Shown: positions 1 through 20,697 of the stretch, one piece after another
Layout of the letters: the number at the start of each line of letters is the position of its first letter
Position numbering within the stretch: the stretch's first letter is position 1
Source: an uncultured Pseudomonadota bacterium
GTDB lineage: Bacteria > Pseudomonadota > Alphaproteobacteria > Rhizobiales > Xanthobacteraceae
Reading direction: 5' to 3'
DNA: 32,000 bases
Assembly (NCBI GenBank): GCA_963773305.1
Contig: CAVZAR010000002.1
Coordinates: 20,334 to 52,333, forward strand
Position numbers and translations under genes: made by a program
The notes under the pieces: generated by a model
Seen by the model: only the letters and a program-made list of their open reading frames with translations
Told to the model about the DNA's origin: nothing
Databases searched by the model: none

Positions 1-2
1 CG

Positions 3-1520: not shown

Positions 1521-2841
1521 TTATGACGCGGTCATCGCGGGGGCCGGCGTGGCCGGAGTCGCCGCCGCCGCGGCGTTAAAGGAGCTCGGATGGTCGGTCC
1601 TCGTCATCGAACCTGGTCAACACGATGAGCGGCGCCTTGGCGGCGAATTGATTCATCCGACCGGGGTGATGGCGCTGCGTGAGCTCGGCCTGTTCTCGGA
1701 AGTCGCCTCCGAAGGAGCCGCCTCGATCGCGGGGTTCATTGCATTGCCCGGACGAGACGAAGGCTGGGCAAACATTGCACTTCCTTATTCGCAGCGAGGG
1801 GCGTATGGAACTGCGATCGCCCTCGCTCACGCACGCATCCGCGCAAGCCTGCAGAGGGCCGCTGCCCGGCTCGGCCATGCCGAAATGCTCAAGGGTGGCC
1901 GCGTGGTCGGAGTCGAAGCCGGCCGGATGCCGACGCGAGTTCGCATCCAGCACGCCGGCAGCATCTTAACGGTCAATTGCCGATTGGTCGTCGGCGCCGA
2001 CGGCGCCTCGAGTGCTGTGCGCGCTTTGGCCGGCATTTCGCACTGGCGTCGGCCGGTCTCCGCGGTCACAGGATATGTAATTAGCGACGCAAACCTGCCG
2101 GCCCGCGGATTCGGTCACGTCTTCATCGGCGGCAGCGCGCCATTGCTGGTATATGAAATTGGGGGCGGCCGCGCTCGCGTCCTTTTCGATCAGCCGATTT
2201 CGCAGTCGAACATTCCCCCCGAACAACATCGTAGCAAAGTCATCTCTGCCATTGCCTATCCCAGGCTACGCACCGAGATCGAGGCGGCGGTGGCGGAGCA
2301 GCGGGGTTTGCGATTTGTCAGCGCCGATGTGGTCGTTGAAACCGCCGCGCGCAATGGCGTCGTGCTGGTGGGCGACGCCGGAGGCAGCTGTCATCCGCTC
2401 ACCGCGACCGGAATGACCATCAGCGTGAACGATGCTCTGCGACTTCGCAACGCTTTGCGCGCGGCTGGCGACAACATCGGCGCGGCATTGTCGCGATATG
2501 GACGAGGCCGGAGACTTCCGCAGCGTACGCGTCTGCTGGTGGCATCCGCGCTGCACGATGCCTTCAGCGGGACAAGGCCTGAGCATCAGCTGATACGTGC
2601 GGGGCTCATCCGATATTGGCTGCGTGACGCGCGCGGCCGGCGGGCTTCGATGGACATCTTGGCTATGAGCGACGTTCGCCTGCTCTCCGCGTTGCGCGAA
2701 ATCCTCGTCGTCGTTCGGCATGGTATCGCGGCGAAGTCGGCTGGCTGGTCAATCGGCCGCGTCGGCGCCGGCTTGCGGCTGATGGCGGGTGTTACCGGCG
2801 TTGTCATGCGCCAGCTCAGTTTCGCGATGCGCGCCAAGTAG
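1507..2841 (+). CDS. Squalene monooxygenase (squalene epoxidase), FAD-dependent
   Basis: The ATG at 1507 gives MAGIDYDAVIAGAGVAGVAAAAAL, a GxGxxG dinucleotide fold. A GDAGGSCHPLTATGMT motif typical of the squalene epoxidase family is present. The track start at 1339 lies inside the cyclase gene and was rejected. The chosen start overlaps the cyclase stop by 14 nt. Confidence 0.85.
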   Translation: MAGIDYDAVIAGAGVAGVAAAAALKELGWSVLVIEPGQHDERRLGGELIHPTGVMALRELGLFSEVASEGAASIAGFIALPGRDEGWANIALPYSQRGAYGTAIALAHARIRASLQRAAARLGHAEMLKGGRVVGVEAGRMPTRVRIQHAGSILTVNCRLVVGADGASSAVRALAGISHWRRPVSAVTGYVISDANLPARGFGHVFIGGSAPLLVYEIGGGRARVLFDQPISQSNIPPEQHRSKVISAIAYPRLRTEIEAAVAEQRGLRFVSADVVVETAARNGVVLVGDAGGSCHPLTATGMTISVNDALRLRNALRAAGDNIGAALSRYGRGRRLPQRTRLLVASALHDAFSGTRPEHQLIRAGLIRYWLRDARGRRASMDILAMSDVRLLSALREILVVVRHGIAAKSAGWSIGRVGAGLRLMAGVTGVVMRQLSFAMRAK

Positions 2842-2852
2842 GGCACACCACC

Positions 2853-3881
2853 ATGATCCTGGTCACCGGCGCTGGCGGACATCTTGGTGCGAACCTGCTG
2901 CGAAGGCTGTTGGCCGACGGCCAGCAGGTGCGGGCCATGTTGCATACCGAGCGAGACCGGCCGAGCGTGGAAGGGCTTGTCGTCGATGTCTTCGTGGGCG
3001 ACCTGCGCGACCCGAGAGCGGCCGAAACGGCCGCGCGCGGCTGCCGGCAGATCTATCATTGCGCTGCCAAGGTATCGACGACCTATGCGAACCGCGACGA
3101 TATTTTCGACGCAAACGTGATCGCGACGCGCAACGTCCTGCGCGCCGCAAAAGCGAGCGGGGTCGAAAAGGTCGTAGTCACGGGCTCGTTCAGCGCTGTA
3201 GGCGTCCGCGACGACGGTCCGAGCGACGAAAATGACCCGTTCAACCCGCTGCAGCCTCACTTGCCGTACGGCTTCACCAAGGCTGCCGTCGAACACGAGT
3301 GTCTGAAGGCTTTCGCCGATGGGGTCCCCGTCGTGGTCGCGGTGTCGACCGCGATTGTCGGGCCCAACGATTTCAAGCCGTCGCGCATGGGGCAGGTGCT
3401 GATCCGCTTCGCTTCAGGGCGGCTGCACGCCTATGTGCCGGGCGGTTTCCCCTTCGTTGCCGCCGAGGACATTGTGCAAGGTCACTTGCTTGCCATGACC
3501 AAGGGTCGGCCTGGACAGAAATACATTTTCGCAACTTCGTTCATGAGTTTCGACGATCTGATGCAAATGTTTTCCCAGGTTACCGGGCGTCCGGCTCCGC
3601 GGCTGCGCATTCCGCCGGAGTTGATGGGTGCCCTCGCGCAGGTCGCCGGTGCGCTGCTGCCGTATCTCAAGCCGAACAGCGAGCAATTGTTGACGCCCGC
3701 GGCCATACGCATTCTACGCATGAATCGGAAGGCCGACATCAGCAAAGCACAGAGCGAGTTGGGTTTCCGGCCCACGAGCATCGAGCGCGCCATTCGCCAG
3801 GCCCATGACTGGTTCGTGGCCCGGGGAGTGATCGCCGCCCCGGTCGGTTCGGCGGCCCGGTTAGTGGAAGCGTCGCGATGA
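2853..3881 (+). CDS. NAD(P)-dependent epimerase/dehydratase (3beta-HSD / sterol C-4 decarboxylase-reductase type; SdmB-like)
   Basis: N-terminal Rossmann motif ILVTGAGGHLGANL and a YxxxK catalytic dyad (YGFTK). It sits between squalene epoxidase and CYP51, and its stop overlaps the CYP51 start by 4 nt. Confidence 0.7.
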   Translation: MILVTGAGGHLGANLLRRLLADGQQVRAMLHTERDRPSVEGLVVDVFVGDLRDPRAAETAARGCRQIYHCAAKVSTTYANRDDIFDANVIATRNVLRAAKASGVEKVVVTGSFSAVGVRDDGPSDENDPFNPLQPHLPYGFTKAAVEHECLKAFADGVPVVVAVSTAIVGPNDFKPSRMGQVLIRFASGRLHAYVPGGFPFVAAEDIVQGHLLAMTKGRPGQKYIFATSFMSFDDLMQMFSQVTGRPAPRLRIPPELMGALAQVAGALLPYLKPNSEQLLTPAAIRILRMNRKADISKAQSELGFRPTSIERAIRQAHDWFVARGVIAAPVGSAARLVEASR

Positions 3882-5227
3882 AAACGGTTCCGATGGTCGC
3901 CGGCGGCTTGCCTTATATCGGCCACGCGCTGGCCTTTAACCGGAATCCCGTAGAATTCTTGCAAAACGGCAAGGCGCTGCACGGCGACCTGTTTCGTTTC
4001 CGGCTGCTGGGGAACACCGTCTATGCACTGATGTCGAGTCGGGGCAACGAAGCGGTGTTTCGCGCCTCCGATGGCGTACTCGATTTCCGCGAAGCTTACC
4101 GCTTCACAATCCCGATTTTCGGCAAGGGTGTCGCCTATGATGTTGCGCCCGAGCTGATGGATCAGCAACTCGAGTTAATCCATCCCGGCCTGCGCGACGA
4201 GGCGATGCAGAATTATGCCGGGATCATGGCCGATGAAGTCGAGCGCTTCGCCACACGTCTTGGCGGCGGAGGCGAGATTGATCTCTTGACCGCGCTCAAT
4301 GAGCTCACGACCTTTATCGCCGGCCGTTGCCTCCTCGGCGAAGAGTTCAGAAGCCGTTTGTCGGCGGAATTCGCAGGGCTTTACCGCGATCTCGAGGGCG
4401 GCATCAATCTCGTCGCGTTTGTTGCGCCGTATTTCCCTACCGCCAAAAACCGACGCCGCGACCGGGCTCGGCGCGAGGTCGCCGCGATAATCGCCGATCT
4501 CATCGCAGGCCGTCGCCGCAGTGAAAAGGGGGAAGACGACTTCCTTTCCGTCCTGATGGCGGCGCGCTACGCCGACGGCACATCGTTGACGGACGATGCC
4601 ATCGCCGGCCTGCTGCTCACCCTGCTGTTTGCCGGCCAGCACACCAGCGCCGTCATGGCATCATGGTTGGGCGTGATGCTATCCAAGCATCGTGATCATG
4701 GAGCGGCCGTCGCCCGCGAAGCATCCGACATGCTCGGCAGTGAAGTTCGTCTGGCCAAGCTGAAGCGGATGCGGTTGATGGAATATTGCCTGAAAGAAGT
4801 GGAGCGGCTTTACCCGCCCCTCGTCATGCTGATGCGGAAGACGGTGCAGCCATTCTCGGTCGGCGACATCGTCATACCGCCGGGCAATCTGGTCATGGTA
4901 TCGCCCGGCGTGAGCCATCGCCAGCGCGAGGTCTTTCGAAATCCCGATGTTTTCGATCCAGCCCGTTTTGCGCCGCCGCGCGAAGAGGATCGCAAAACGC
5001 CTTATTCGCTGATCGGGTTCGGTGGAGGCAAGCATCGGTGCATCGGCATGGCGTTCGCCCATCAGCAGATCAAGGTCATCTGGGGCATTCTCCTGCAGCG
5101 TTTCGAATTCGAGCTGGTCGAGCCACAGGTCGAGCCCGACTATGCGACCTTTGTGGTGGGTCCGCGGCAGCCATGCCGCGTACGTTACCGCCGCCGGCAG
5201 TCCGAATCCTTGGCTGAGGCAAGCTGA
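3878..5227 (+). CDS. cyp51: Cytochrome P450 sterol 14-alpha-demethylase (CYP51)
   Basis: Heme-thiolate motif FGGGKHRCIGMAFA, CYP51-specific I-helix signature AGQHTS (LLFAGQHTSAV), and B'-helix signature YRFTIPIFGKGVAYDV. Confidence 0.9.
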   Translation: MKTVPMVAGGLPYIGHALAFNRNPVEFLQNGKALHGDLFRFRLLGNTVYALMSSRGNEAVFRASDGVLDFREAYRFTIPIFGKGVAYDVAPELMDQQLELIHPGLRDEAMQNYAGIMADEVERFATRLGGGGEIDLLTALNELTTFIAGRCLLGEEFRSRLSAEFAGLYRDLEGGINLVAFVAPYFPTAKNRRRDRARREVAAIIADLIAGRRRSEKGEDDFLSVLMAARYADGTSLTDDAIAGLLLTLLFAGQHTSAVMASWLGVMLSKHRDHGAAVAREASDMLGSEVRLAKLKRMRLMEYCLKEVERLYPPLVMLMRKTVQPFSVGDIVIPPGNLVMVSPGVSHRQREVFRNPDVFDPARFAPPREEDRKTPYSLIGFGGGKHRCIGMAFAHQQIKVIWGILLQRFEFELVEPQVEPDYATFVVGPRQPCRVRYRRRQSESLAEAS

Positions 5228-6840
5228 TGCGCACGCCCCGACCGATCGACTGGTTTCTCATTGGGCTCGTGGTGTTCTTCATTGCGTTCAACGCTACGGT
5301 TGATCGCTATTGGGTGACGCATGCGCACGAATTGCCGGCGCTGACCAAGACCGACCTTTTCGCGCGCATGTTCCAACATTATGCAGCCGCCGACCGAGGC
5401 TATTTCGACGAGGTCACCCAGGCCGAACTTGCGCTGGAAACGATCAACAGCACAATCACGCAAGCCTTCAACATCTGGCTGCTGATCGCGCTGTTCGCGC
5501 GCTGGCCGGTGCGCGTGCCGTTGCAGATCGCGATCGGCTCCTGGGTATCGTATTCGGTCTTGTTCAACTGGTGGTGCGCCCTGATCGCCGGTTTTCCCGG
5601 CATGGATCACAAGACGCCATGGAACTTCATCGTTTTGGTTGGAGCCAATCTGCCGTGGCTGGCTGGCCATCTCTACATCGCTTTCGCTGGCGCCCGCGAA
5701 TTCTTAAAGGTCGAGCCGCTCCCCGCCCCCGCCATGCGGAAGACCGCGCCGCTACCTCCCGATTTCTCCACGGCGCGCAATCTTCGCCAGAAAGCCCGCG
5801 CCGCGGGGCTTGACCCCGACCATTGGTACGCCTTCACGCGCGCCAAAGATCTCAAGCCGGGACAGGTGGTGGCTTCGAGCTTCCAAGGCGAAGCGATCGC
5901 GATCTATCGCGCTGCCGATGGCAAAGTTCGCGCCATGACCGACCGCTGCCTGCATCGCGGCATTCGGCTGTCGTTGGGCGAGGTGAGGGACTGCGGGCTC
6001 GTCTGCGCCTACCACGGTTGGGCCTATGGTGAAGATGGTAAGCTCGTCGATGTTGCGCACGAAAGGTTTGGCCGACCGCTGCCGGACGTCGGCGTCAGGG
6101 TATTCCCCGTGCGCGAGCGCTACGGCTTGATCTGGGTCTTTCCCGGCGATGCGGTGCGCGCCGAATCTGTGCCCATGCCCGAAATTCCGGAGATCGAGGG
6201 CCCGGATGCGTGGGCCTTCACGGCAATTGAATATACCTGGGATGCGCACCACTCGATCATCATCGATAACCTCAGTGATCTCACGCACGCCTATCTTCAC
6301 CGCCGCTACCGGCCGTTCCACGATCCCGTCCTGACGAAAAACGAGCCCAGCGATAACTCGGTGTACTGCATCTACGAATTGTCATTGCTAGACGGTCCGA
6401 TGAAGCGTCTGATCGACCGCGGCGCCAAGATGGACCTGATGGAGTTGTGCCTCGAGTACCCCTACCAGTGGGGCAATACCGGCGGTCGTGTAAAGCATTG
6501 GGTTTTTCTGACGCCGTTAAACGACCATCAAACGCGCGTCTACTTTATCTTCTATTTCAATCAGGTACAGGTGCCTTTCACGCCCTTTCATTTTCCGCAG
6601 CGGGTGATGGGCTGGGTGATCGGCATCTTCAACCCGATCTTCATCAAGCCGGTGACGAGTCAGGACGGCGATGCCGTCGCATGGGAACAGGAGGGCTACG
6701 ACACCGAGTTGGGCCGTCCCGTCATCGAACTCAATCCGGCGGTCGCCCAGTTCCAGCAGTTGATCGTGCGCAAGTGGCAGAACTATCTCGACCGCGTCTC
6801 CGGCGGGTCGGCTGCGAAGCATGAAAGCGCATTGACATGA
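5227..6840 (+). CDS. Fusion protein: N-terminal EBP/EXPERA-like 4-TM domain plus C-terminal Rieske [2Fe-2S] non-heme iron oxygenase (SdmA-like candidate sterol C-4 methyl oxidase)
   Basis: Rieske motif CLHRG...(17)...CAYHGW and a downstream DNLSDLTHAYLH metal-binding-like motif. The first ~165 aa are hydrophobic and paralogous to the next gene (shared ADRGYFDEV, RWP, YSV, NLPWL). The start overlaps the CYP51 stop (TGATG). Confidence 0.75.
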   Translation: MRTPRPIDWFLIGLVVFFIAFNATVDRYWVTHAHELPALTKTDLFARMFQHYAAADRGYFDEVTQAELALETINSTITQAFNIWLLIALFARWPVRVPLQIAIGSWVSYSVLFNWWCALIAGFPGMDHKTPWNFIVLVGANLPWLAGHLYIAFAGAREFLKVEPLPAPAMRKTAPLPPDFSTARNLRQKARAAGLDPDHWYAFTRAKDLKPGQVVASSFQGEAIAIYRAADGKVRAMTDRCLHRGIRLSLGEVRDCGLVCAYHGWAYGEDGKLVDVAHERFGRPLPDVGVRVFPVRERYGLIWVFPGDAVRAESVPMPEIPEIEGPDAWAFTAIEYTWDAHHSIIIDNLSDLTHAYLHRRYRPFHDPVLTKNEPSDNSVYCIYELSLLDGPMKRLIDRGAKMDLMELCLEYPYQWGNTGGRVKHWVFLTPLNDHQTRVYFIFYFNQVQVPFTPFHFPQRVMGWVIGIFNPIFIKPVTSQDGDAVAWEQEGYDTELGRPVIELNPAVAQFQQLIVRKWQNYLDRVSGGSAAKHESALT

Positions 6841-7334
6841 TGCGCACCGACAAAATAGCGCTCTCGTTAATCGCCTTCTTTGTCGTCGTGGCGCTGACGA
6901 TCGAACTGTATTGGCTTGTCCATGCCTTCGATTTGGCGAGCAGCAATAGTTGGCTCGCCCGCGGCTTCGCATTTTACGGCCGAGGCGACCGCGGCTACTT
7001 CGACGAGGTGAGCTGGTTCGAGGTCGGGCTCGAAAGCTTCAACATCATTTTCACGGTTCCGGTGTATCTCGTGTTGGGATATGCGATCGTCGCCGGGCGC
7101 GGGTTCCGCTGGCCCTTGCAGCTTTGTCTGGGTGCTTACACGACTTATTCCGTCGTGCTCTACCTGACGGCAAAGCATGTCACCGGCTATGTCGAGATGC
7201 CGAAACACGACCTCGCGTCGTTTCTAATTCTGTACGTTCCCAACCTTCCTTGGCTCTTTGGAAACGGGTATCTGACGCTCGATGCGGCAAGGGTCATCCT
7301 CCGCGCTGTGCGATTGCGCGAAAGGGGGGCGTGA
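6837..7334 (+). CDS. EBP-like (emopamil-binding-protein / sterol Delta8-Delta7 isomerase family) small membrane protein
   Basis: 165 aa with about 4 hydrophobic helices. YGRGDRGYFDEV resembles the EBP Y-x-K-G-D-S-R-Y segment. LESFN, RWPLQLCLGAYTTYSVVLYL and NLPWLFGNGYLTLDA align, from memory, to EBP METIT, ...LQLVVSVGQIYGDVLYF and NALWLVLPGVLVLDA. ATGA overlap with the upstream gene and TGATG overlap with the downstream gene. Confidence 0.65.
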   Translation: MMRTDKIALSLIAFFVVVALTIELYWLVHAFDLASSNSWLARGFAFYGRGDRGYFDEVSWFEVGLESFNIIFTVPVYLVLGYAIVAGRGFRWPLQLCLGAYTTYSVVLYLTAKHVTGYVEMPKHDLASFLILYVPNLPWLFGNGYLTLDAARVILRAVRLRERGA

Positions 7335-8401
7335 TGCAGTTCGCGCCGGTGACCTTGCAATCTGTCGGCCTTTCGGTACTCGGCATCGCGGGTTTTATTG
7401 TTGCCTTATTCGTATCGTCGCTCGTGGTGCCGGGTCCGGAATACGAGGTGACGGCCCGCGGCGGCGAGCGCATTCGCTACCGGCTCAATGGCTTGGCGCT
7501 GCTCGCAATAACGATCGCGATAGCGGCGCTCGCGCAATGGCGTGGACCCGGTCTGGCGCCGCTGGCGCGAGACATCTGGTCGCTTTTTATCGCGGCGAAC
7601 TTGTTGGCTTGGCCGGCGGCCTTCCTGCTGGTCGCCCGCGCGGGAGCGTGGCGGAAGAGCAGCGTCGCCGATTATTTCTACGGGGTCGAGAGGAACCCGC
7701 AGCTCTTCGGCATCGATTTGAAAATGTTCTCCTATCGTCCGTCGTTGATCGGGCTCGCGCTCGTCAACGCCTCTTTTGCGGCGTGGCAGTGGCAGGTCGC
7801 CGGGACGCTCAGCCTGGCGATGACCTGCTATCAGGTTTTCACGCTGCTCTATATCGTGAACTATTTCCAGTTCGAGAGCGGCATGCTTTTCACCTGGGAC
7901 ATCATCGAAGAAAAGTTCGGCTGGATGCTGGTTTGGGGCGACTATGTGCTGGTGCCCTTTTTCTACGCTTTGCCGGCCGCGTTCGTGCTTTCGCGGCCGG
8001 GTGATGTGACCTTCGCCGGAGCGGCGGCGCTCGCGGTGCTTTACCTGCTGGGTTTTTGGATTTTCCGCGGCGCCAATTCCCAGAAGCATCGCTTCAAGCG
8101 CCAGCCGGGCGCGCCGGTGTGGGGGCGTTCGCCCAGCGTCATCGGGGGCAAATTGCTCGCTTCGGGCTTTTGGGGCATCGGCCGCAAGCTCAACTACACC
8201 GGCGAATTCCTGATGTACCTGAGCTGGACGCTGCTGGCGGGCTTCCGGTCCGTTGTGCCGTATCTGCTGCTGCTGTGGCTGCTGCTGCTGCTTATGCAGC
8301 GCGCCAGCCGCGACGACCGCCGCTGCCGCGAAAAATATGGCCAGCTTTGGGATGAGTACTGCCGCAAGGCGCGGTTTCGAATGTTTCCGTACATCTATTG
8401 A
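7334..8401 (+). CDS. Sterol reductase, ERG4/ERG24 family (C-14 reductase most likely; DHCR7 or C-24(28) reductase not excluded)
   Basis: Family signatures LLASGFWGIGRKLNYTGEFLMYLSW and the C-terminal RDDRRCREKYGQLWDEYCRKARFRMFPYIY. The chosen start is the ATG at 7334 (MQFAPVTLQ...). The track's 6950 start would overlap the whole EBP-like gene. Confidence 0.85.
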   Translation: MQFAPVTLQSVGLSVLGIAGFIVALFVSSLVVPGPEYEVTARGGERIRYRLNGLALLAITIAIAALAQWRGPGLAPLARDIWSLFIAANLLAWPAAFLLVARAGAWRKSSVADYFYGVERNPQLFGIDLKMFSYRPSLIGLALVNASFAAWQWQVAGTLSLAMTCYQVFTLLYIVNYFQFESGMLFTWDIIEEKFGWMLVWGDYVLVPFFYALPAAFVLSRPGDVTFAGAAALAVLYLLGFWIFRGANSQKHRFKRQPGAPVWGRSPSVIGGKLLASGFWGIGRKLNYTGEFLMYLSWTLLAGFRSVVPYLLLLWLLLLLMQRASRDDRRCREKYGQLWDEYCRKARFRMFPYIY

Positions 8402-8404
8402 GGC

Positions 8405-9661
8405 GTGACGATGAACCGTGATCGAATTTACGACGTATGCATCGTCGGTGCCGGACCGGCCGGAGCCACGTGCGCCTTCTACCTCGCCAGCCATGGGCAC
8501 GATGTCGCGCTCCTGGAACGCAAGCGATTCCCGCGCGACAAGATTTGTGGCGACGCGATCTGTGCGCAGGCACAGCTGCATCTGAAACGCATGGGCGTCT
8601 TGCAGCAGATCATCGATAACGACGAGGGGCACTTTGCAGCTGTTGGCGGCATGGTCAGCCCGCGCGGCTACAGCTACATCGCCAGCTCTGCCGAACATCT
8701 TAAATCGAGCCAAGTTATCGCTATTAAACGTATGTTTCTTGACGTGCGTATCGCGTACGCAGCTAGGTCGGCCGGCGCAAATTTGGTAGAGGATGTCGCG
8801 GTTGCCGGGGCTGATTTCGACAAAACGAGCGGAACTTGGACCGTCACAACGGAAAATGGACAGCCGCCGATTCGCGCCCGCGTGCTTGTGGCAGCCGATG
8901 GCGCGCTCTCTCGTCTTGCGCGCCGCCTCGGCTATCTCGCATCGCCGCCGGATGCGGTATGCAGCCGCGCCTATGTGCGTGCCGACTCGACGAATTTCGA
9001 TGCCGACGGCGTGGTCTATTATCCAAAGCGCCTGCTCCCGGGATATTGCGCGATCTTTCGAGAAGCGCGCGGGGAGTTGAATTTCTGCGTCTATATTATC
9101 CCGGGCGGTAAGACCGGGATCGACGATCTGCGCACTGTACATCACGAGATCTTGCACAAGGATCCGCACGTCAGCCGTGCCATTGGCCCAAAAGCCGAAA
9201 TCGATCCGATGAAAGGTGCACCATTGCGGCTCGGCGGTATTGCGCGCAGCTACGGTGACCACTTTCTTATCGTCGGTGACGCCGCCGGACATATCGACCC
9301 GCTCACCGGCGAAGGTATTCAATTCGGTATGGACGCCGCGGAATATGCCGCCGACACGCTCCATGCTGCGCTGGCGGTCGGCGACCTCAGCGCAAGTGCT
9401 TTGAAAATCTACCAGGACCGCTGGATGAAAGCTTTCGGGCGTGACTTTTCCTGGTCATCGGCGATTGCGCGCTTTTATGCGCGGTTCCCCGGTTTTCTCG
9501 ACGCCGGTGCCTTGACCTTGCAGCGGCTGGGCCCACCTTTTCTGGCCGAATGGGCGCAGATCATGACCGGAGCTAGGCCAAAGACGGATTTCTTCAAGCC
9601 GGGAGTGTTCGCGCCGATCATGCGCGATTTTGTGTCCTTGCACTTGAGATCCGCGGCATGA
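8405..9661 (+). CDS. Geranylgeranyl-reductase-family FAD-dependent oxidoreductase
   Basis: YDVCIVGAGPAGATCAFYLASHGHDVALLERKRFPRDKICGDAI is the classic GGR-family N-terminus, and GDAAGHIDPLTGEGI is the second FAD motif. Start is GTG 8405 or ATG 8411. Confidence 0.7.
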   Translation: MTMNRDRIYDVCIVGAGPAGATCAFYLASHGHDVALLERKRFPRDKICGDAICAQAQLHLKRMGVLQQIIDNDEGHFAAVGGMVSPRGYSYIASSAEHLKSSQVIAIKRMFLDVRIAYAARSAGANLVEDVAVAGADFDKTSGTWTVTTENGQPPIRARVLVAADGALSRLARRLGYLASPPDAVCSRAYVRADSTNFDADGVVYYPKRLLPGYCAIFREARGELNFCVYIIPGGKTGIDDLRTVHHEILHKDPHVSRAIGPKAEIDPMKGAPLRLGGIARSYGDHFLIVGDAAGHIDPLTGEGIQFGMDAAEYAADTLHAALAVGDLSASALKIYQDRWMKAFGRDFSWSSAIARFYARFPGFLDAGALTLQRLGPPFLAEWAQIMTGARPKTDFFKPGVFAPIMRDFVSLHLRSAA

Positions 9662-10686
9662 ACGCGCAAGACAAACGCGGCAACCCGGGCATTGCGCAAT
9701 TGCTATCGTCGAATTCTGATCGCAACGGCGTCGAGGCGGCGGTTACCGACTATCTGGCGCATTACCACGGCACGCTCGCCGACCGCCAGTCGGCCTATGC
9801 GGACGTGGTGAACGGCTACTTCGACCTTGCGACCGACTTTTATGAGTATGGTTGGGGCCAATCGTTTCACTTCGCGCAAATAGCCGCGGGCGAATCGTTC
9901 GCGCAAGCAATCATCCGCCACGAGCGTCAGCTTTTTCATAGGCTCGGAGCGCAATCGAACATGACCGTGCTTGATGTCGGGTGCGGAGTAGGCGGCCCGA
10001 TGCGGAATCTCGCGCGCCTCGCGGGGTGCAAAGTTGTTGGCATCAACAACAATGCCTATCAGGTTTGGCGTGCAAAGCAGCTGAACGCCGAGGCCGGTAT
10101 TGACGAGCAATGTCGCGTCGTGCCCGGTGATTTCATGGCCATGCCGCTCTCGGACGGCACGATGGACGGAGCATACGCGATTGAGGCAACAGTGCACGCG
10201 CCGAACTGGGGTCGCGTGTTTCGCGAGGTCTGGCGGGTGCTCAGGCCCGGCGCCTCCTTTGCACTTTACGACTGGTGTCTGACCGATGTTTTCGATGTTG
10301 GAAATCCGCACCATCAGGAAATTAAGCGACGAATTGTTGCGGGCAACGGGTTGATCGACATAGGGACGTCTAGGCAATTGCTAGAGGCGCTGGGTGGGGC
10401 TGGATTCGATCTGCTTGAACATTATGACGCTGCTGCACGAGGCGGCGCGCCGTGGTTCGAGCCGCTGGCGCCGCGCAGCGTCTCGCTCGCGGGGTTCCGC
10501 AGCTCGGCCGTCGGTCGGAAAGTGACAAACTGGTCGCTGAAGGCGCTAGAGCTGTTGCGCATCGCGCCAAAGGGTACATTCAACGTGGCAGTCTTCCTCG
10601 ATAAAGCCGCGGTTGCGCTGGTAGAGGGAGGAAGGAGTGGGATTTTTACGCCGATGTATTTCGTGCATGCCCGTAAGCCCGGTTGA
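9658..10686 (+). CDS. Sterol 24-C-methyltransferase (SMT / ERG6 family)
   Basis: SMT region-I signature YEYGWGQSFHF, SAM motif VLDVGCGVGGPMRNL, and an SMT-type C-terminus GIFTPMYFVHARKP. ATGA overlap with the upstream gene. Confidence 0.9.
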   Translation: MNAQDKRGNPGIAQLLSSNSDRNGVEAAVTDYLAHYHGTLADRQSAYADVVNGYFDLATDFYEYGWGQSFHFAQIAAGESFAQAIIRHERQLFHRLGAQSNMTVLDVGCGVGGPMRNLARLAGCKVVGINNNAYQVWRAKQLNAEAGIDEQCRVVPGDFMAMPLSDGTMDGAYAIEATVHAPNWGRVFREVWRVLRPGASFALYDWCLTDVFDVGNPHHQEIKRRIVAGNGLIDIGTSRQLLEALGGAGFDLLEHYDAAARGGAPWFEPLAPRSVSLAGFRSSAVGRKVTNWSLKALELLRIAPKGTFNVAVFLDKAAVALVEGGRSGIFTPMYFVHARKPG

Positions 10687-10689
10687 GCC

Positions 10690-11937
10690 ATGCGGGTGGC
10701 GGTCGTTGGCGGAGGTGTTGCAGGTCTCACAACGGCATGGCTACTGGCGGAAACTTGCGATGTAACGCTTTTCGAACGCGGTCCGAGGCTGGGCGGCCAC
10801 GCCCACACTGTCGACATCATGGAAGATGGAAAGCAAATTGCGATCGATGTCGGCGCGGAATTTTTCGGCAATCGGCAGACTTATCCGCGATTTCATCGTC
10901 TGCTTGACCTTCTTTCGGTGCCGACCCGTTCCTTTTCGGCGACCGCGACGGTCTATTGTCCCGAGAACGGAGACAAATTGGTACTGCCGCCGTGGCGTGC
11001 CGGCGTGGTCGACTGGTCGGCGCTGAACCTTCGTGGGCTTTTGAATCTTTTGCGCTTCGCCGAATTTTCCGCAGCGGTCGGCTTCTCGAACGAAAACGCG
11101 CTTCGGCGAGAGACGATTAAGCAGTTTCTTGAACGGAAGTCGGCGCCAGATTTTAGAGACCGTTTACTGGTGCCGTTTCTGCTTGGACAGTTCGGAATGC
11201 CGCGCGACGCATTCAACGATTGTCTTGCCTACGACACGCTTAAATACTGCATGCAGGCTGGCGCCCTTCGACTAACTGCGCCGCGAATGACGGAAGTCGT
11301 GGGTGGGACGCGGAGTTATGTCGAGGCGCTGGAGGGCGAACTGCCGCGAGAGTGTGTGGTCCGGGACGCGTTGGTCACGCGCATTGAGTCGTCCCGTGAA
11401 GGACTCTTTCTCTGCCTTGACGACGGGGAACGGTATGCGGCGGATCACGTTGTGATAACCGCGGGCGCCAAGGACGCTGCTCGCTTATGCAAGACGAGTG
11501 GGCTCGCAAATGAAGCCCGCATTTTCGGCGGTGTCGATACGTTCGAAGCTGAATTGGTAGTTCACGGTGATGCTTCGGTCATGCCTGCCGAACCGAAAAG
11601 CTGGTCGGTCGCCAATTTTCGCGCGTCCGGCGATAGCGCAGCGTTGACGGTCTGGAAGCCTTGGAAAAGTAAGACCGTGTTCCGGAGTTGGACGACCGGA
11701 AAGGGGCATACTTACCGGAGCGAACACGGCAGATTCTGCTTTCGCCATCCAGTCGGCAATTCAAAATATTATTGGGTTCAGGATGCAATCCGCGTGCTGC
11801 AAGGCACAAAGAGTATCTGGTTTGCGGGAGCTTGCGTGCAAGACAATGACTGTCACGAAAGCGCTGTTATGTCGGCGCTCGCCGTGGCGCGCAGGCTTGC
11901 ACCGGGCAGCGGTCGAATTGTACAGCTCGGTCAGTAA
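10690..11937 (+). CDS. NAD(P)/FAD-dependent oxidoreductase (amine-oxidase/CrtI superfamily, COG2907-like), function unknown
   Basis: N-terminus MRVAVVGGGVAGLTTAWLLAETCDVTLFERGPRLGGHAHTV is a dinucleotide fold plus the GGH motif typical of this family. It is the last gene of the sterol operon and starts 3 nt after the SMT stop. Confidence 0.65.
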   Translation: MRVAVVGGGVAGLTTAWLLAETCDVTLFERGPRLGGHAHTVDIMEDGKQIAIDVGAEFFGNRQTYPRFHRLLDLLSVPTRSFSATATVYCPENGDKLVLPPWRAGVVDWSALNLRGLLNLLRFAEFSAAVGFSNENALRRETIKQFLERKSAPDFRDRLLVPFLLGQFGMPRDAFNDCLAYDTLKYCMQAGALRLTAPRMTEVVGGTRSYVEALEGELPRECVVRDALVTRIESSREGLFLCLDDGERYAADHVVITAGAKDAARLCKTSGLANEARIFGGVDTFEAELVVHGDASVMPAEPKSWSVANFRASGDSAALTVWKPWKSKTVFRSWTTGKGHTYRSEHGRFCFRHPVGNSKYYWVQDAIRVLQGTKSIWFAGACVQDNDCHESAVMSALAVARRLAPGSGRIVQLGQ

Positions 11938-11979
11938 TCTCGGCTTGCGAACCGCGGGTGTACAGCAATTGAAGGGCTA

Positions 11980-13296
11980 TTATGGTTGGTCCGCCGCGGG
12001 CGAGCCGCCGGTCTTTTGCATTGGCAGAGCGGTACCCGCCTCGCAGGATGCGAGTCGGACGCCGGCTAGATAATAATGGATGGCGGCCCAAAAAGAGATG
12101 CACTGCACGACCACAAGGCTATAACGCAATGCATCCGCGCCGTGGGACGCGAAGATAAACTGGCTTAGTGCGCCGGCCATGAGGGGGCCGAGACCAAGCC
12201 CGATAAGGTTGAGGACGAGCAGAAACACCGACGACGCTACCGGCCGCAATTCGGCGCGCATGTAATTGTGCAGCACCGCCAGCGACGGCCCTACATATAT
12301 CGCCGAGCAAATGCCGGGAATGAGAAACAGCAGGAGCGCGGACAGGGTAGGTTGCACGAGCAAAGCGCCGAAATACAGCGGACGTGTTGCGACCAGGACG
12401 GCCGCCACGAGCCAAAGTGACCAGCGGAGATCGCGGCGGCGGAGCCAGTCGCACGCCACGCCGCCGAACCAGGTGCCGAAGGCGCCGCCTATTCCAATGG
12501 TGAGCGCGAGGTAGGTGCCCGCGCTGGCAATTGTCATACCATGCGAGCGCACAAAAAATGACGGCAGCCAGGTGAGTGAAGCGTAACCGGAGATGCTGGC
12601 GAGGGTAGAGGCTATGGTGACGTGGCGCAAAATGGAGCTGCGCGTCATGATGCGCAGCGTATCCCCGAAGGGCCGCGGCGAGACATTTTCGTGCGCTTGC
12701 TGCGGAGGCATGCGGCGTGCAGGCTCGCGCACGGTGAGGCGTAATAGCGCCGCTATCGCTAGGGTCATGGCGCCGGCTGCCACGAAGGCAATGCGCCAGC
12801 CATAGACTTGGCCAATAATTCCACCAAACAGGAACGCCCCGAATACCCCGACATTGACGCCAGCCGCCCAGGTGGAAAGGGCCATCGCGCGGTCGTCCGG
12901 GCCATAAAGGTCGGAGATGATGGCGTGGGAGGCGGGCATTCCGCCGGCCTCGCCGATGCCCACGCCGAAGCGCGTGAGGAAGAGTTGCGAATAGGATACG
13001 GCAAAGCCACACGCCGTGGTCATTGCACCCCAGATCAGCGCCGAGACGGTCAGTAGGCCTGTGCGATTGCCGCGGACGGCATAGAGCGCCGCCGGAATGC
13101 TCAATGCTGTATAGATGAGAGCAAATGCAAGCCCCACGAGCGCGCCGATCTGGGTATCGCCAAGCGAGAATTCATGGCGGATAGGTTCGATCAGGATGTT
13201 CATGATCTGCCTGTCGAGCTGGTTCATCGCCGACAAGCAAGCCAGGACGAAAAGCACATAATGACGCGCGGCCGGCGAACGTGCTGGCGCGGTCAT
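11980..13296 (-). CDS. MFS transporter (Spinster-like subfamily pattern)
   Basis: 438 aa with about 12 hydrophobic segments. The N-terminal LACLSAMNQLDRQIMNILIEPIRHEFSLGDTQIGALVGLAFA pattern is typical of this MFS group. The start overlaps the LysR stop (ATGA). Confidence 0.8.
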   Translation of the reverse strand: MTAPARSPAARHYVLFVLACLSAMNQLDRQIMNILIEPIRHEFSLGDTQIGALVGLAFALIYTALSIPAALYAVRGNRTGLLTVSALIWGAMTTACGFAVSYSQLFLTRFGVGIGEAGGMPASHAIISDLYGPDDRAMALSTWAAGVNVGVFGAFLFGGIIGQVYGWRIAFVAAGAMTLAIAALLRLTVREPARRMPPQQAHENVSPRPFGDTLRIMTRSSILRHVTIASTLASISGYASLTWLPSFFVRSHGMTIASAGTYLALTIGIGGAFGTWFGGVACDWLRRRDLRWSLWLVAAVLVATRPLYFGALLVQPTLSALLLFLIPGICSAIYVGPSLAVLHNYMRAELRPVASSVFLLVLNLIGLGLGPLMAGALSQFIFASHGADALRYSLVVVQCISFWAAIHYYLAGVRLASCEAGTALPMQKTGGSPAADQP

Positions 13297-14273
13297 GAGG
13301 TCGCCGTCAATCCGTGTGATTTACCGGCCGCTTCAATGCCACCGGAGGGCACGCTGCCGGTCGCATCCCACATGGCCTTTAGCATAGTTTCACGCAGCCA
13401 TTTGTGGCCGGGATCGTCGGTGTTCTTTTCGTGCCACATCATATGGTATTCGTGAGGTGAAATCGGTACCGGCAACTCGTGAATGTCCAATTGAAAAGGT
13501 TCGGCCCAACGATGGGCGAAATGGCGGGGGAGGAACGAAACCAAGTCGGTCGTCGCGACGATCGCTGGGATCGACCAGATCTTGTGGACGCTGTACACGA
13601 GCCGACGTGGTCCACCGCGCGTCGTCATGTCGCGATCGATGGTAATCTGATTCCGAAGCTCGGGGATCAAACCGACGTGCCCGAGCTTAAGAAAGGTTTC
13701 CGCGTCGAGCTTCTTCCCGATCCCGGGATGTCCGCGGCGGCACACGACGACATAGTCGATCGCGCAAATCGGAATGATGACGATTCCGGAAAGACTTGCG
13801 ATAAACGGATAACACGCCAGGTCAAGCGTCCCCGACTTGAGGTCGTCGAGGATCGTGGTCAGCGCTGCGGGTCGCGATTCGATAGTAATGCCCGGTGCTT
13901 TTTGCTCGATGATCTGCAATGCAGGGGACAACATGTGCGATTCGAGCGTGTCGACAATCACGATACGAAAATCTCGCTTGTAGGTGGCGAGATCGAGCTT
14001 GGATGGGCCTTCGATCTGGCTGCGGATCAGTTTGAGCGCGTTGCGTACGGGCTCGATCATCTGCTGCGAACGGCTGGTAGGCTTGACCCCACGGCCGGAG
14101 CGCACAAACAGGAGGTCATCGAAGTGCTCGCGCAACCGCGAGATGGCATTCGAAACCGCCGGTTGCGTCAAAGATAGCTGCTTTGCGGCGTGACTGATGT
14201 TCCCAGTGGCGTAGACCGTATCAAATACAACCAAAAGGTTAAGATCAACATTTCTTACACTTTTGATTGTCAC
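13293..14273 (-). CDS. LysR-family transcriptional regulator
   Basis: HTH region VDLNLLVVFDTVYATGNISHAAKQLSLTQPAVSNAISRLREHF followed by a LysR substrate-binding-type C-terminus. The preferred start is GTG at 14273, preceded by GGAGGA. The track's TTG start at 14345 is an alternative. Confidence 0.85.
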   Translation of the reverse strand: MTIKSVRNVDLNLLVVFDTVYATGNISHAAKQLSLTQPAVSNAISRLREHFDDLLFVRSGRGVKPTSRSQQMIEPVRNALKLIRSQIEGPSKLDLATYKRDFRIVIVDTLESHMLSPALQIIEQKAPGITIESRPAALTTILDDLKSGTLDLACYPFIASLSGIVIIPICAIDYVVVCRRGHPGIGKKLDAETFLKLGHVGLIPELRNQITIDRDMTTRGGPRRLVYSVHKIWSIPAIVATTDLVSFLPRHFAHRWAEPFQLDIHELPVPISPHEYHMMWHEKNTDDPGHKWLRETMLKAMWDATGSVPSGGIEAAGKSHGLTATS

Positions 14274-14453
14274 CGTATCCTCCACCCCAAAGTCCGAAAT
14301 ATTCAGCCGATAAATACTTTGGCGCTTTGGCGACGCAATTTTCAAGAGCCTTGCGCGCTAGGAGCGAGGCAGCGCAATCGGGGTCTGATTGCCGCGGTCC
14401 TCCGCCAGCCTCTGGCTTGCGCAAGTCTTCAATAGGACGCGCCGCGGCTGACG

Positions 14454-14816
14454 CTACTTGGCGGCGATCCAGACGCGCGCCTTGGCCGCGTCGGCGCGCG
14501 CGAAGGTGCGCATATCGCCTGGCATCAGGAAGCTGAAGAACTTCATGGTGTGCTTGATCCAGTCGACGTCGGTGACCACCGCCATGCGTTCCCAGCGCGT
14601 CAAGTGCTCCATGCCGACCTTGAAATCCTCCCAAACCGCGCCGGGCTCGATGCCGAAATCGTCACCGGTCTCGTAATAGATGCGCAGCTTGTGGCCGCTC
14701 TTGAGCGCGTCGTTCACCGCCGGCACCAGCACATTGTCGTAGTCCGCCTTGGTCACTTTGCCGCGGCAAGCGAAGGCCAGTACGTTGGCGGGAAAATCCT
14801 TCAGACGCTCGATCAT
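14454..14816 (-). CDS. STAS/SpoIIAA-like small protein (DUF3478-type)
   Basis: MIERLKDFPANVLAFACRGKVTKADYDNVLVPAV...WERMAVVTDVDWIKH matches my memory of this family. The ATG at 14816 was chosen because the upstream 85 codons of the track ORF look non-coding. Confidence 0.6.
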   Translation of the reverse strand: MIERLKDFPANVLAFACRGKVTKADYDNVLVPAVNDALKSGHKLRIYYETGDDFGIEPGAVWEDFKVGMEHLTRWERMAVVTDVDWIKHTMKFFSFLMPGDMRTFARADAAKARVWIAAK

Positions 14817-15015
14817 GATCCTCTCCGTCGAAAAAGCGGCCGGCCTGGCGGTTGAATGCCTGACCCTAGCCGCGTAAGGCGGCGAGACATTGATCGAGCT
14901 CAAAGAATTACGGCAAAAAGCCGGGATTCCCAGGGGCCCAAGCACGAGCCCCGTCGCCTTCACATACCGCGGCTTTGGGTTAGGATGCGCGCCCGCCAAC
15001 CGAAAGAAGCGCCGC

Positions 15016-15438
15016 ATGCCAGCTCCGTTTCCGCTGCCCGCCAAGCTCAGTGCCGACCTCGCCGGCGTCAAGGCCTACTGGGAGGACCTCAAGCGTGCCG
15101 GCAACGAGATGCCGTTCTGGGACGACGTCAAGCCGTCGGCGCTCGGCGAGCGGGCCGACACCATCGTGCTGATCGACGTTTTCGATAGGCCGGAGCGCTT
15201 CCGTTTCAACGCGCTGGGCAAGGCGCTGGCGCGGCGCTATGGCGAGCCGCTCGCCAGCAAGTTCCTGGAGGAACTGACCTTGCGCGATCCGTTCGACTAT
15301 CTGCTGGCGCAGTGCAGCGCGACGGTCGAGGCGCGCGCGCCGACCTATTATGAGAGCGGCGGGGTTGCGCGCCTGCTGCTGCCGATGTGGGGCGACGGCC
15401 GCATCGGCATGCTGCTGGGCGCGGTGGAGTGGGCGTGA
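15016..15438 (+). CDS. Small PAS-like protein (PAS_5/DUF1457-type)
   Basis: The YWEDLKRAGNEMPFWDDVKPSALGERADTIVLIDV...RFRFNALGKAL pattern is typical of the alphaproteobacterial single PAS_5 proteins. ATG at 15016 chosen (MPAPFPLPAKL). Confidence 0.5.
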   Translation: MPAPFPLPAKLSADLAGVKAYWEDLKRAGNEMPFWDDVKPSALGERADTIVLIDVFDRPERFRFNALGKALARRYGEPLASKFLEELTLRDPFDYLLAQCSATVEARAPTYYESGGVARLLLPMWGDGRIGMLLGAVEWA

Positions 15439-15441
15439 GGC

Positions 15442-16344
15442 TTACGCCATCAATGCGCGCGCGCCCCTCGGCCAGGAGCCCGCTGACATCGATCCCGTTG
15501 GTTTCGTGCGCGATTGAGTTGGTGGTGACGACGCGGGCGGCGCCGGCTGCCCTCATTTCCGCAAGCGCGTTGCCGGCGAAGATGCCGTGCACGCCGATGC
15601 ACACCGGCGGAGCCAGACTTTTATCTTTCAGGTGTTTCAGCGTCTCGACCATGGTCTGCCCGCTGGAGATGATGTCGTCGACCAGTACCGGCGTGCGCCC
15701 GCACCACTGTGCAAGGTCGGGCATCGCCACCTCGACATCGCGGTCGCCGCGGCGGACTCTTGCGCAGCACGATGTGCGCCGCACCTGCGCCACGCGCCAC
15801 GGCTGCCACCCATTGCTCGCTTTCCCGGTCCGGCCCGATCAGCAGCGGGCTTGTCGACGTTGTCGCTGATCCATTGCGCGATCAGCGGCGCCGCATGCAG
15901 CGCGCGCGTCGGCACGCTGTAGATCTCGTCGAGCGAGGCGCGTCGGTGCAGATGCGGATCGACGGTGATCAGCCAATCGACTTCGCCCGACACGATGCGG
16001 GCGAAAGTGGCGGAGGAAATCGCCTCGCCCGGCTGGAAGCGGTGGTCCTGCCGCATATAGGCGAGATAAGGCGCAATGAGACCGACGCGGCGCGCCTGCA
16101 AGTCGCGCGCGGCCGCGGCGGCGAACAGCAGCGCCGGCAGCTTGTCGTCCGGCCGGTCGAGCGTGCACAGCAGCGCGACGTCGCGGCCGGCAACCGGCGT
16201 GTCATAGCGCCAATAGGTTTCGCCGTCGGGAAAGCGGCGCATCGTGGCCTTACCGGCTTCGGCGCGCAGCAGCGGCACGAGCAACGACGCCATTTGCTCA
16301 TTGCCGGGCAAGGCGAATAGCAAGGGCGTCATGGAAGCCGTCAT
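15442..16344 (-). pseudogene. Ribose-phosphate pyrophosphokinase (Prs)-like gene interrupted by 2 clear and 1 probable +1 frameshifts
   Basis: The coherent Prs-like sequence must be read across three frames. Frame 1 runs MTASMTPLLFALPGNE...AQWISDNVDKP. Frame 2 runs LLIGPDRESEQWVAAVARGAGAAHIVLRKS. Frame 3 runs RRGDRDVEVAMPDLAQWCGRTPVLVDDIISSGQTMVE...TNGIDVSGLLAE. Returning to the first frame then gives a stop TAA at 15442-15444. The switch points lie in G/C runs near 15847-15849, 15751-15756 and 15455-15467. Confidence 0.7.
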
Positions 16345-19246: not shown

Positions 19247-19348
19247 TGTGCCGCTCCGGCCGGTTGACGTTAACCGGCCGGCGCATAGGACCACCGTCGG
19301 GAACCGCGGCGTTTAACCTGGATCAAATTGCCGGGGAAACAAAGCAGC

Positions 19349-19930
19349 CTACTGGGCTTTTTGTGCGCCCGCTTCGCCGGCCGTTTCACCGGCCTCGCCG
19401 CCGGTTTGCGTCTTCTTCTGCTTGATTGCTTTGAATGCGGCCGGCGGGAAGTCGTGCATATGGGTCACGAAGGCCACCAGTGCGCGCTGTTCGTCCGCGT
19501 CGGTGTGGCCGCCGAAGGCCGGCATGCCGGTCATTTTGATGCCGTGCTTGATGACCCAGGCGACTTCGGCTGCTTCCGGCCCGTGCTCATGTCCGTGATG
19601 CTCATGCTCGGCGAGCTCGGGCGGCTTGGGATTCATGCCCTTGGCGAATTTTTTCGGCTCCACGCCGGGGCCGCCGTGGCAATCGACGCAGCCTTCCTCG
19701 ACGAATTCGTGCGCGCCCTTTGCGATCAGCGCCGGGTCGTCGAGTTTGCCGCTGGGCGCCTCGCCCGCGTGCCGCTCGATCGACGAACCGCGGACGGTCT
19801 TCAAAGACCAGTCGATGAAGCCGTTATCCGGCGCGCTGGCGGCGACGTCGTAGAAGCCGCCGTAGAAATATGCGGCGGCGGCGGCACTGGCGAGAATCGC
19901 CAATACGCCGATGGCAGCAAGAATTCGCAT
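19349..19930 (-). CDS. Membrane-anchored/secreted c-type cytochrome
   Basis: N-terminal hydrophobic signal/anchor (MRILAAIGVLAILASAAAAAY), a single CXXCH (CVDCH), and a downstream Met ligand context (IKMTGMPAFGG). Confidence 0.75.
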   Translation of the reverse strand: MRILAAIGVLAILASAAAAAYFYGGFYDVAASAPDNGFIDWSLKTVRGSSIERHAGEAPSGKLDDPALIAKGAHEFVEEGCVDCHGGPGVEPKKFAKGMNPKPPELAEHEHHGHEHGPEAAEVAWVIKHGIKMTGMPAFGGHTDADEQRALVAFVTHMHDFPPAAFKAIKQKKTQTGGEAGETAGEAGAQKAQ

Positions 19931-19971
19931 GATGACCTCGTTCGTGAGAATCTAAAAGTCAACGGCGGTAC

Positions 19972-20454: not shown

Positions 20455-20661
20455 GGCTCAGGCTCCCCCGCGCTGCCGGGCGGCGAGCGCCTCGGCGGGC
20501 CGCGTGCGACGAATGGTATTTTGCGGCGGTATCGACTGACTGAACATGGCCGGTCATCGGAAATAACTTAGCCGGTCAAGCTTGGCCGGCGCGTCGCCTC
20601 TCGATATCAAAGCGCCGTGCGCGCGGATTGTTCCGCCCTACCGCGCTATGCGGCGCATGGT

Positions 20662-20697
20662 GAAAAATGAAAAGCCCCGGGACAGCGGTCCCGGGGC
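20662..20697 (-). terminator. Rho-independent terminator-like hairpin (orphan)
   Basis: Perfect 10-bp stem GCCCCGGGAC / GTCCCGGGGC (20674-20683 and 20688-20697) with a 4-nt loop. On the minus strand it is followed by UUUUCAUUUUUC. On the plus strand there is no U-tract. Confidence 0.6.

Follow-up and report, generated by a model that had tools for sequence, protein, structure and literature searches.

Steranes with an alkyl group at C-24 (ergostane, stigmastane, 24-isopropylcholestane) are taken for fossils of eukaryotes, and the locus described here raises the question whether a bacterium carries the equipment to make sterols of this kind by itself. The locus lies on a stretch of 32,000 nucleotides (nt) from an uncultured alphaproteobacterium of the family Xanthobacteraceae (assembly GCA_963773305.1, contig CAVZAR010000002.1, positions 20,334 to 52,333), which is called the window in the following. 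A preliminary description had recognized in it an ERG6-type sterol C-24 methyltransferase (SMT), translationally coupled to a full sterol core pathway, and had proposed the organism as a candidate bacterial source of 24-methyl or possibly 24-ethyl sterols. Here, we put a probability of roughly 0.82 on the reading that the predicted enzyme is a functional sterol C-24 methyltransferase dependent on S-adenosylmethionine (SAM), encoded in a ten-gene de novo sterol operon of this alphaproteobacterium and acting in the pathway proposed below.

The SMT gene and its diagnostic elements are located as follows:

9658..10686, plus strand: predicted sterol C-24 methyltransferase, ATG start, 342 amino acids (aa), gene nine of the ten in the operon
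9841-9873, plus strand: Region I, YEYGWGQSFHF, aa 62-72
9970-9999, plus strand: Region II, the SAM motif LDVGCGVGGP, aa 105-114
10345-10347, plus strand: Asn230, equivalent to position 249 of the yeast enzyme
10492-10680, plus strand: Sterol_MT_C domain, aa 279-341
10645-10680, plus strand: C-terminal segment FTPMYFVHARKP, aa 330-341

By its motifs and domains, the open reading frame (ORF) 9658..10686 is confirmed as a genuine SMT-family enzyme with intact substrate and SAM motifs, and this evidence goes far beyond chance. The Pfam domain Sterol_MT_C (PF08498), with a curated cutoff of 21.7 bits, scored 84.2 bits (E=6.8e-24) and is preceded by a class-I SAM methyltransferase domain (Methyltransf_11, 66.7 bits, E=3e-18, aa 105-202). 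Region I fits the pattern (Y/F)E(Y/F)GWGxxFHF and Region II the pattern DxGxGxxGP; both motifs and the C-terminal ending quoted in the preliminary description were located in the 342-aa product. None of the NCBIfam models of non-sterol methyltransferases came near its cutoff, the top one scoring 77.5 bits against 550. Among 5.8 billion proteins, 3167 were homologous at E<=1e-3; the top matches all bear PF08498 and include named cycloartenol C-24 methyltransferases. Plant SMT1 (cycloartenol C-24 methyltransferase) is 48-50% identical over ~98% of the length (E~1e-98) and yeast ERG6 42% identical, and the nearest relatives are metagenomic proteins with 61-70% identity. No part of the ORF is missing, and it aligns collinearly with its homologs, which measure 340-342 aa. 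A solved SMT structure for comparison was not found.

Twenty-five residues are conserved in every SMT active in vitro (Brown & Welander 2025, preprint 10.64898/2025.12.19.695621). Residues were mapped in the numbering of yeast ERG6, with a reference sequence that agrees with all 28 residue/number pairs of that preprint. The window SMT keeps 24 of the 25 residues, the sole change being Tyr74 to Phe (Y74F). The same exchange is present in 11 of the 12 relatives with at least 61% identity (P0002-P0013; P0011 has Tyr), and since it is fixed across nearly the whole subclade, it is regarded as a lineage trait and not as a decay mutation. The earlier assignment to the ERG6-type SMTs is thus borne out by the Sterol_MT_C score, by these residues and by the identity to SMT1 and ERG6.

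The number of methyl groups transferred was approached through residues with described effects. Gly249 is needed for 24-isopropyl (C30) products, in the mutants G249N, G249A, G249S and G249T the C30 sterols were lost while C29 sterols continued to be formed, and the C30 yield rose with Phe at position 81 or 83 (10.64898/2025.12.19.695621). This signature of propylation is absent from the window SMT, which has Asn230 at position 249, Tyr62 at 81 and Tyr64 at 83, a combination identical to that of plant SMT1 (P0041). Because of these three residues, a third methylation leading to 24-isopropyl sterols appears unlikely. Of the repeated methylation considered earlier, a second step to 24-ethyl sterols is possible, and a single methylation is most likely, with the limit that the sequence cannot tell one from two.

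The phylogenetic position agrees with the assignment to the SMTs. In a rough neighbour-joining tree of 52 sequences with 100 bootstraps, which is without SMT2, sponge SMTs and assayed bacterial SMTs, all 43 bacterial SMTs split from yeast ERG6 and plant/algal SMT1 at 98% bootstrap. The window SMT grouped at 100% with the SMTs of an uncultured alphaproteobacterial locus (L001), of a Rhodoplanes metagenome-assembled genome (MAG; L002) and of locus L082, and this group is nested in a proteobacterial clade supported by 99%. By its top matches, the NCBIfam scores and this tree, the enzyme stands among the SMTs and not among non-sterol methyltransferases. A scan of one genome per bacterial species detected relatives at at least 211 loci, with 68% identity at best among those listed. 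The 80 loci listed of these 211 all belong to MAGs, and they come from Dehalococcoidia, Chloroflexota, Myxococcota, Alphaproteobacteria, Binatia, Latescibacterota, Nitrospirales and others, the closest relatives by locus being found in uncultured Alphaproteobacteria and the Rhodoplanes MAG; the host of the operon is probably Hyphomicrobiales-like.

The gene is embedded in an array of ten co-directional genes on the plus strand, reaching from an oxidosqualene cyclase (OSC) to a flavoprotein. The other nine members are predicted as follows:

3..1520, plus strand: OSC, C-terminal 505 aa, 5′ end cut by the window start
1507..2841, plus strand: squalene epoxidase, 444 aa (Pfam SE and FAD_binding_3), overlapping the OSC end by 14 nt
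2853..3881, plus strand: SdmB-like NAD(P)-dependent sterol C-4 demethylation protein, 342 aa (Pfam Epimerase and 3Beta_HSD)
3878..5227, plus strand: CYP51-type sterol 14alpha-demethylase, 449 aa (Pfam p450, E=8.7e-61), ATGA overlap with the sdmB gene
5227..6840, plus strand: SdmA-like Rieske 4-methylsterol monooxygenase with an N-terminal EXPERA domain, 537 aa
6837..7334, plus strand: free-standing EBP/EXPERA protein, 165 aa, which may act as sterol delta8-delta7 isomerase (32.9 bits for Pfam EBP, whose cutoff is 25.7)
7334..8401, plus strand: ERG4/ERG24-family sterol reductase, 355 aa as in the database gene call (Pfam ERG4_ERG24, E=3e-69)
8411..9661, plus strand: flavoprotein of the geranylgeranyl-reductase (GGR) family, 416 aa, Bsr-like candidate sterol side-chain reductase, stop overlapping the SMT start
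10690..11937, plus strand: amine-oxidase-fold NAD/FAD-binding flavoprotein, 415 aa, last operon gene (Pfam Amino_oxidase and NAD_binding_8)

The intergene junctions range from -14 to +11 nt. At five of them, start and stop overlap by 1, 4 or 14 nt; four overlaps are of the ATGA or TGATG type, including that between the Bsr-like reductase and the SMT. Since the SMT start codon at 9658 overlaps the stop codon of the Bsr-like gene (ATGA, 4 nt) and the flavoprotein gene begins 3 nt past the SMT stop codon, the translational coupling claimed earlier fits the sequence; the coupling itself is what we infer from this arrangement. Sites resembling promoters or terminators were no more frequent in the operon than in shuffled sequence. 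Gene limits within 6837..8401 were set from the gene calls of relatives and then confirmed by exact look-ups of database gene calls.

The genes for OSC, squalene epoxidase, CYP51, the ERG24-like reductase and the SdmA- and SdmB-like proteins thus form one co-directional array on one bacterial contig of 438,935 bp, probably part of a MAG, and by this gene content the array is predicted to be a bacterial de novo sterol biosynthesis gene cluster. With regard to the full sterol core pathway of the preliminary description, the core genes do stand together in one operon, but genes for squalene synthase, C-5 desaturase and delta7-reductase were not found in the window. The arrangement is not confined to this genome. 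An identical order of all ten genes is present in a JGI metagenome (L082) and in a Logan assembly (L083), in the uncultured alphaproteobacterial locus L001 genes one to nine are arranged likewise, with 64-79% identity, and the flavoprotein is lacking, and about a dozen other MAG loci have parts of the operon.

Evidence for the individual core enzymes differs in detail. The OSC matched TIGR03463 (osq_cycl) with 580 bits over profile positions 146-633 and human lanosterol synthase (1w6k) with E=1.8e-79, and the equivalent of the catalytic Asp455 is present. Lanosterol synthases have T/C/V and cycloartenol synthases Y/H/I at positions 381/449/453. In the window OSC, the residues at these positions of the human numbering are Ala/His/Val (nt 486-488, 687-689 and 699-701), and because this set fits neither pattern, the product cannot be called from the sequence; lanosterol is slightly favoured over cycloartenol. 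The 444-aa squalene epoxidase starting at ATG 1507 equals the database gene call, and its 90% cluster is labelled squalene monooxygenase by JGI, just as the representative of the CYP51 90% cluster is labelled sterol 14alpha-demethylase. CYP51 needs a delta14-reductase partner, and the top solved relative of the ERG4/ERG24-family protein is the bacterial delta(14)-sterol reductase 4quv (E=2.9e-63), so that this gene most likely encodes a delta14-reductase. A role as delta24(28) reductase was also considered; given this need of CYP51 and the delta14-reductases at the top of the solved relatives, it is probably not the case.

The two proteins assigned to C-4 demethylation find their top NCBIfam matches in the models of SdmB (NF052578, 287 bits) and SdmA (NF052579, 308 bits, residues 186-522), known from Methylococcus capsulatus (MCA1016/MCA1017; cited in PMC10070321), with the whole profiles covered. 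Because both scores stay below the equivalog cutoffs of 600, the window proteins are regarded as distant homologs. In the 90% cluster of the SdmA-like protein, member P0124 is labelled 4beta-methylsterol monooxygenase by JGI. Unlike the 351-position SdmA model, which is matched in its entirety, the window protein has in addition an N-terminal EXPERA (EBP-like) membrane domain of ~185 aa (nt 5227..5781; 31 bits for Pfam EBP, cutoff 25.7). With 34% identity over 161 aa (E=1.6e-27), the domain is paralogous to the free-standing EBP protein encoded immediately downstream. The pair of EXPERA-SdmA fusion and EBP is kept in L001, L035 and L081-L083, the same 165-aa EBP gene being called in L081-L083, and is absent in the other SdmA homologs examined; its conservation is confined to loci that have this operon.

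The gene overlapping the SMT start was missed in the preliminary description and bears directly on the expected product. Its protein exceeds the cutoff of TIGR02032 (GG-red-SF, 171.5 bits against 158.8), with MenJ (NF045655, 119.9 bits) as second match, and is 55-60% identical to homologs of Calothrix, Nostoc, Myxococcales and Gemmataceae, including 58% to a homolog from a Myxococcales MAG. The catalytic Cys (Cys47 of the S. acidocaldarius GGR) is kept in KICGDA (nt 8540-8557). The segment GYCAIFR (nt 9041-9061) aligns with GYIWVFP of the solved GGR 3oz2, which gives YxAxFR versus the canonical YxWxFP, with unchanged Tyr and Phe but Ala for Trp and Arg for Pro. This variant occurs in all 13 clade members aligned, cyanobacterial and myxobacterial ones included. 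Bsr of Sandaracinus amylolyticus, a member of the GGR family, reduces desmosterol and zymosterol at delta24 and groups with MenJ; its description is set in the context of cholesterol, concerns chiefly Myxococcota and Cyanobacteriota and does not mention methyltransferases, and Table S2 of the same paper lists a Hyphomicrobiales isolate, Lichenifustis flavocetrariae, with 51% identity to Bsr (Lee & Welander 2025, J Bacteriol, PMC12004948). The window protein resembles Bsr in its family score, in MenJ as next match, in the kept Cys and in its place in a sterol cluster, and differs in its alphaproteobacterial host and in the overlap with an SMT gene; from canonical GGRs, which have YxWxFP, it departs by its YxAxFR. 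Presumably, it is an ortholog of the assayed Bsr (AKF09143).

The neighbourhood of the two genes was compared between SMT clades. Among the loci listed, the SMT gene has a Bsr-like gene at a distance of up to 10 kb in nine of the ten loci of the 99% clade as well as in the window, and in seven loci of the clade the two genes directly adjoin each other; near the SMT genes of ~70 loci of other clades there was none. Contigs are repeatedly shared by the matches of both proteins. These data suggest that the pairing is specific to this clade and point to saturated 24-methyl sterols as a candidate product. In other published bacterial clusters, the SMT stands beside ERG4 or DHCR24 homologs (PMC10070321). 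The Bsr-like gene in their place looks like a non-orthologous replacement of the same step, which is the simplest reading.

From what the sequences show, namely the gene identities, the operon architecture, its conservation in relatives and the residue signature, we infer the enzymatic activities, the order of steps and the final product of the following pathway. Squalene epoxidase and OSC would form a protosterol, from which CYP51 and the ERG24-like reductase would remove the 14-methyl group and SdmA and SdmB the C-4 methyl group or groups, while EBP would shift the double bond from delta8 to delta7. The SMT would transfer a methyl group from SAM onto the delta24(25) bond of the side chain, and the resulting C-25 cation would be resolved to a 24-methylene, a delta25(27) or a 24-methyl-delta24 sterol. 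The Bsr-like flavoprotein would then most likely saturate the side-chain double bond left over, so that a 24-methyl sterol with ergostane or campestane skeleton is expected as end product. We tentatively interpret the overlapping genes as a dedicated side-chain module, with methylation at C-24 followed by saturation through a YxAxFR variant of the GGR family unrelated to ERG4, DWF1 or DHCR24; the odds of this interpretation are somewhat short of even.

The strongest competing explanation accepts an active SMT and places the reductase in competition with it. In this case, the Bsr-like enzyme would reduce the delta24(25) bond of unmethylated intermediates, mainly cholestane-type (C27) sterols would be formed, and 24-methylene or 24-methyl-unsaturated sterols would arise as a side branch, with no saturated 24-methyl sterols at all. 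It draws on the fact that desmosterol and zymosterol, the substrates reduced by the only characterised Bsr, are unmethylated delta24(25) sterols (PMC12004948), and on the overlap of the two genes, which makes joint production of both proteins probable. However, it seems less likely that enzymes working against each other would stay stably paired, and the linkage of the Bsr-like gene to the SMT in this clade alone (nine of ten loci and the window versus none of ~70 others) also speaks against it. To our knowledge, every SMT-using eukaryote needs a post-methylation reductase as well, and the ERG4- or DHCR24-type reductases paired with SMTs in other bacterial clusters argue in the same direction. 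On balance, competition is judged rather improbable, and methylation followed by saturation is the interpretation we prefer.

Far less probable is an SMT that is intact but catalytically dead or unexpressed, a recently acquired passenger in a horizontally transferred cluster. The G+C content at third codon positions (GC3) of the operon genes is 0.61-0.80 (SMT 0.68), well under the 0.78-0.90 of the flanking chromosomal genes (1..14345 versus 14454..24000), the lowest values (0.61-0.68) belonging to the genes of the Bsr-like protein, the SMT and the flavoprotein. As the operon lies below its flanks, this difference suggests that the sterol operon was acquired horizontally. Such a fate would also be compatible with the departure of Y74F from the residues conserved in functional SMTs and with the many cloned bacterial SMTs that were inactive in vitro (10.64898/2025.12.19.695621). 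However, the ORF is full length and collinear with its homologs, the ten-gene order is kept among relatives merely 58-80% identical, and Y74F recurs in 11 of 12 relatives down to 61% identity, with Tyr kept in P0011, a conservation across the subclade which implies purifying selection.

The least probable explanation is an SMT-family enzyme with another regiochemistry or substrate (a C-4 methylase of the STRM type, a C-26 or C-28 methylase, or an enzyme for non-sterol isoprenoids), for although SMT-family C-4 methylases of 3-ketosteroids sharing the conserved SMT regions exist (PMC9136925) and four of 24 bacterial SMTs were inactive on the two substrates offered (PMC10070321), STRM-type enzymes are reported from nematodes, alveolates and haptophytes and not from bacteria (PMC9136925), the window SMT has the full Region I GWGxxFHF and 24 of the 25 residues of functional C-24 SMTs, and a C-4 methylase would oppose the C-4 demethylation by SdmA and SdmB of the same operon.

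Several points weigh against a functional SMT in the proposed pathway. Position 74 departs from a Tyr described as invariant. Only four of ten additional bacterial SMTs were active in vitro, and some of the inactive ones retained all conserved residues (preprint 10.64898/2025.12.19.695621); therefore, the sequence alone is no guarantee of activity, and the activities of all operon genes are predicted from sequence. The product type of the OSC is ambiguous owing to A/H/V at 381/449/453, and squalene synthesis genes are absent from the window. The Bsr-like protein deviates from canonical GGRs in its YxAxFR segment, and the bond removed by the characterised Bsr, delta24(25), is the SMT's own substrate, so that the two enzymes may act in competition instead of in sequence. 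Finally, the tree is a rough neighbour-joining tree without SMT2, sponge or assayed bacterial SMTs.

The locus has precedents. Of the 24 metagenomic bacterial SMTs assayed by Brown, Olagunju, Giner & Welander (2023, Nat Commun, PMC10070321), 20 methylated desmosterol in vitro and four methylated neither of the two substrates offered. Several of the assayed enzymes came from clusters with homologs of ERG1, ERG7, ERG11, ERG24 and sdmA/sdmB, and the published clusters stem from Chromatiales, Nitrospira, Sandaracinus and Spirochaetes MAGs as well as from sponge metagenomes and symbionts; according to the authors, SMT activity is still to be confirmed in an isolate (PMC10070321). In our searches of the literature, no cultured bacterium was reported to make sterols with an alkylated side chain. 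Because active bacterial SMTs in comparable MAG clusters were published in 2023 (PMC10070321), the locus belongs to a known kind, and the preliminary description had overrated its novelty: the operon is a good new example from an uncultured bacterium and not a new discovery.

A comparison with these systems brings out what the window adds. It shares with the clusters of Brown et al. the combination of an SMT with ERG1, ERG7, ERG11, ERG24 and sdmA/sdmB homologs on one contig, the uncultured host, and an SMT that groups with bacterial enzymes apart from the eukaryotic ones. It differs in its alphaproteobacterial host, in the single SMT copy, in the additional EBP, EXPERA-SdmA fusion and flavoprotein genes, and in the Bsr-like reductase that replaces ERG4/DHCR24. 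Plant SMT1 and yeast ERG6 have the same domain architecture and length as the window SMT; with ERG6, YEYGWG of Region I and LDVGCGVGGP are identical, and with SMT1 the Tyr81/Tyr83/Asn249 signature is common. In contrast to both, the window SMT is bacterial, intron-less and operonic, has Phe for Tyr at position 74 and branches with bacteria, and the cyclase linked to it is not clearly of the cycloartenol type.

The last gene of the operon encodes a flavoprotein of a small subfamily, which comprises about 38 clusters with >=35% identity before the values drop sharply, and which JGI labels 'predicted NAD/FAD-binding protein'. It showed weak matches to HpnE and to protoporphyrinogen oxidase, and its best solved relative is LkcE (6e-20). 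An assignment as HpnE was rejected with 58.9 bits against a cutoff of 283. Homologs adjoin the SMT gene in L082 and L083. In two further loci, L085 (10001..13871) and L086 (8166..12051), a homolog with 37-40% identity is followed by a KshA-type Rieske oxygenase gene (Rieske/KshA_C) and a second flavoprotein gene, with genes for a short-chain dehydrogenase/reductase and EBP nearby and no SMT gene. This arrangement looks like a different, undescribed steroid-modifying cluster, and the flavoprotein subfamily seems to be steroid-associated. UfaM and UfaD form a methylase-desaturase pair of furan fatty acids. By analogy, the flavoprotein was considered as a desaturase partner of the SMT, an idea weakened by the 37-40% identical homologs beside KshA-type Rieske, short-chain dehydrogenase/reductase and EBP genes in loci with no SMT.

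Beyond the operon, bacterial genes for a major facilitator superfamily (MFS) transporter and a LysR regulator (11980..14345, minus strand) converge on its end. Their GC3 of 0.67-0.72 is operon-like; in L082, hemerythrin, NnrS and nitrate reductase genes are found beside the operon instead, and a functional link of the MFS and LysR genes to the operon is doubtful. The rest of the window has ordinary gene content. A low-GC island at 25073..26761 (GC 0.47-0.51, GC3 0.47-0.55) holds two adjacent ORFs of 223 and 335 aa, for which no Pfam or PADLOC match was found, and may be foreign DNA. A 742-aa ORF at 27145..29373 (minus strand) had only a weak match to a RoxA-like cytochrome c motif (28.7 bits). 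Rfam and tRNA scans of the window detected no RNA genes.

The locus alone leaves the present picture of bacterial sterol alkylation unchanged and adds to it a compact, complete-looking ten-gene operon from Alphaproteobacteria. Its most interesting outcome is the clade-specific coupling of SMT and Bsr-like genes together with the predicted saturated 24-methyl sterols. If these two enzymes do form a side-chain module, free-living Alphaproteobacteria of soil or freshwater would produce saturated 24-methyl sterols (C28, ergostane skeleton) de novo, and the Bsr family would gain a new substrate class. Bacteria would then have a route entirely of their own to a class of steranes that is attributed to eukaryotes, and if the pairing does yield saturated 24-methyl sterols, a bacterial input to C28 steranes would become more plausible.

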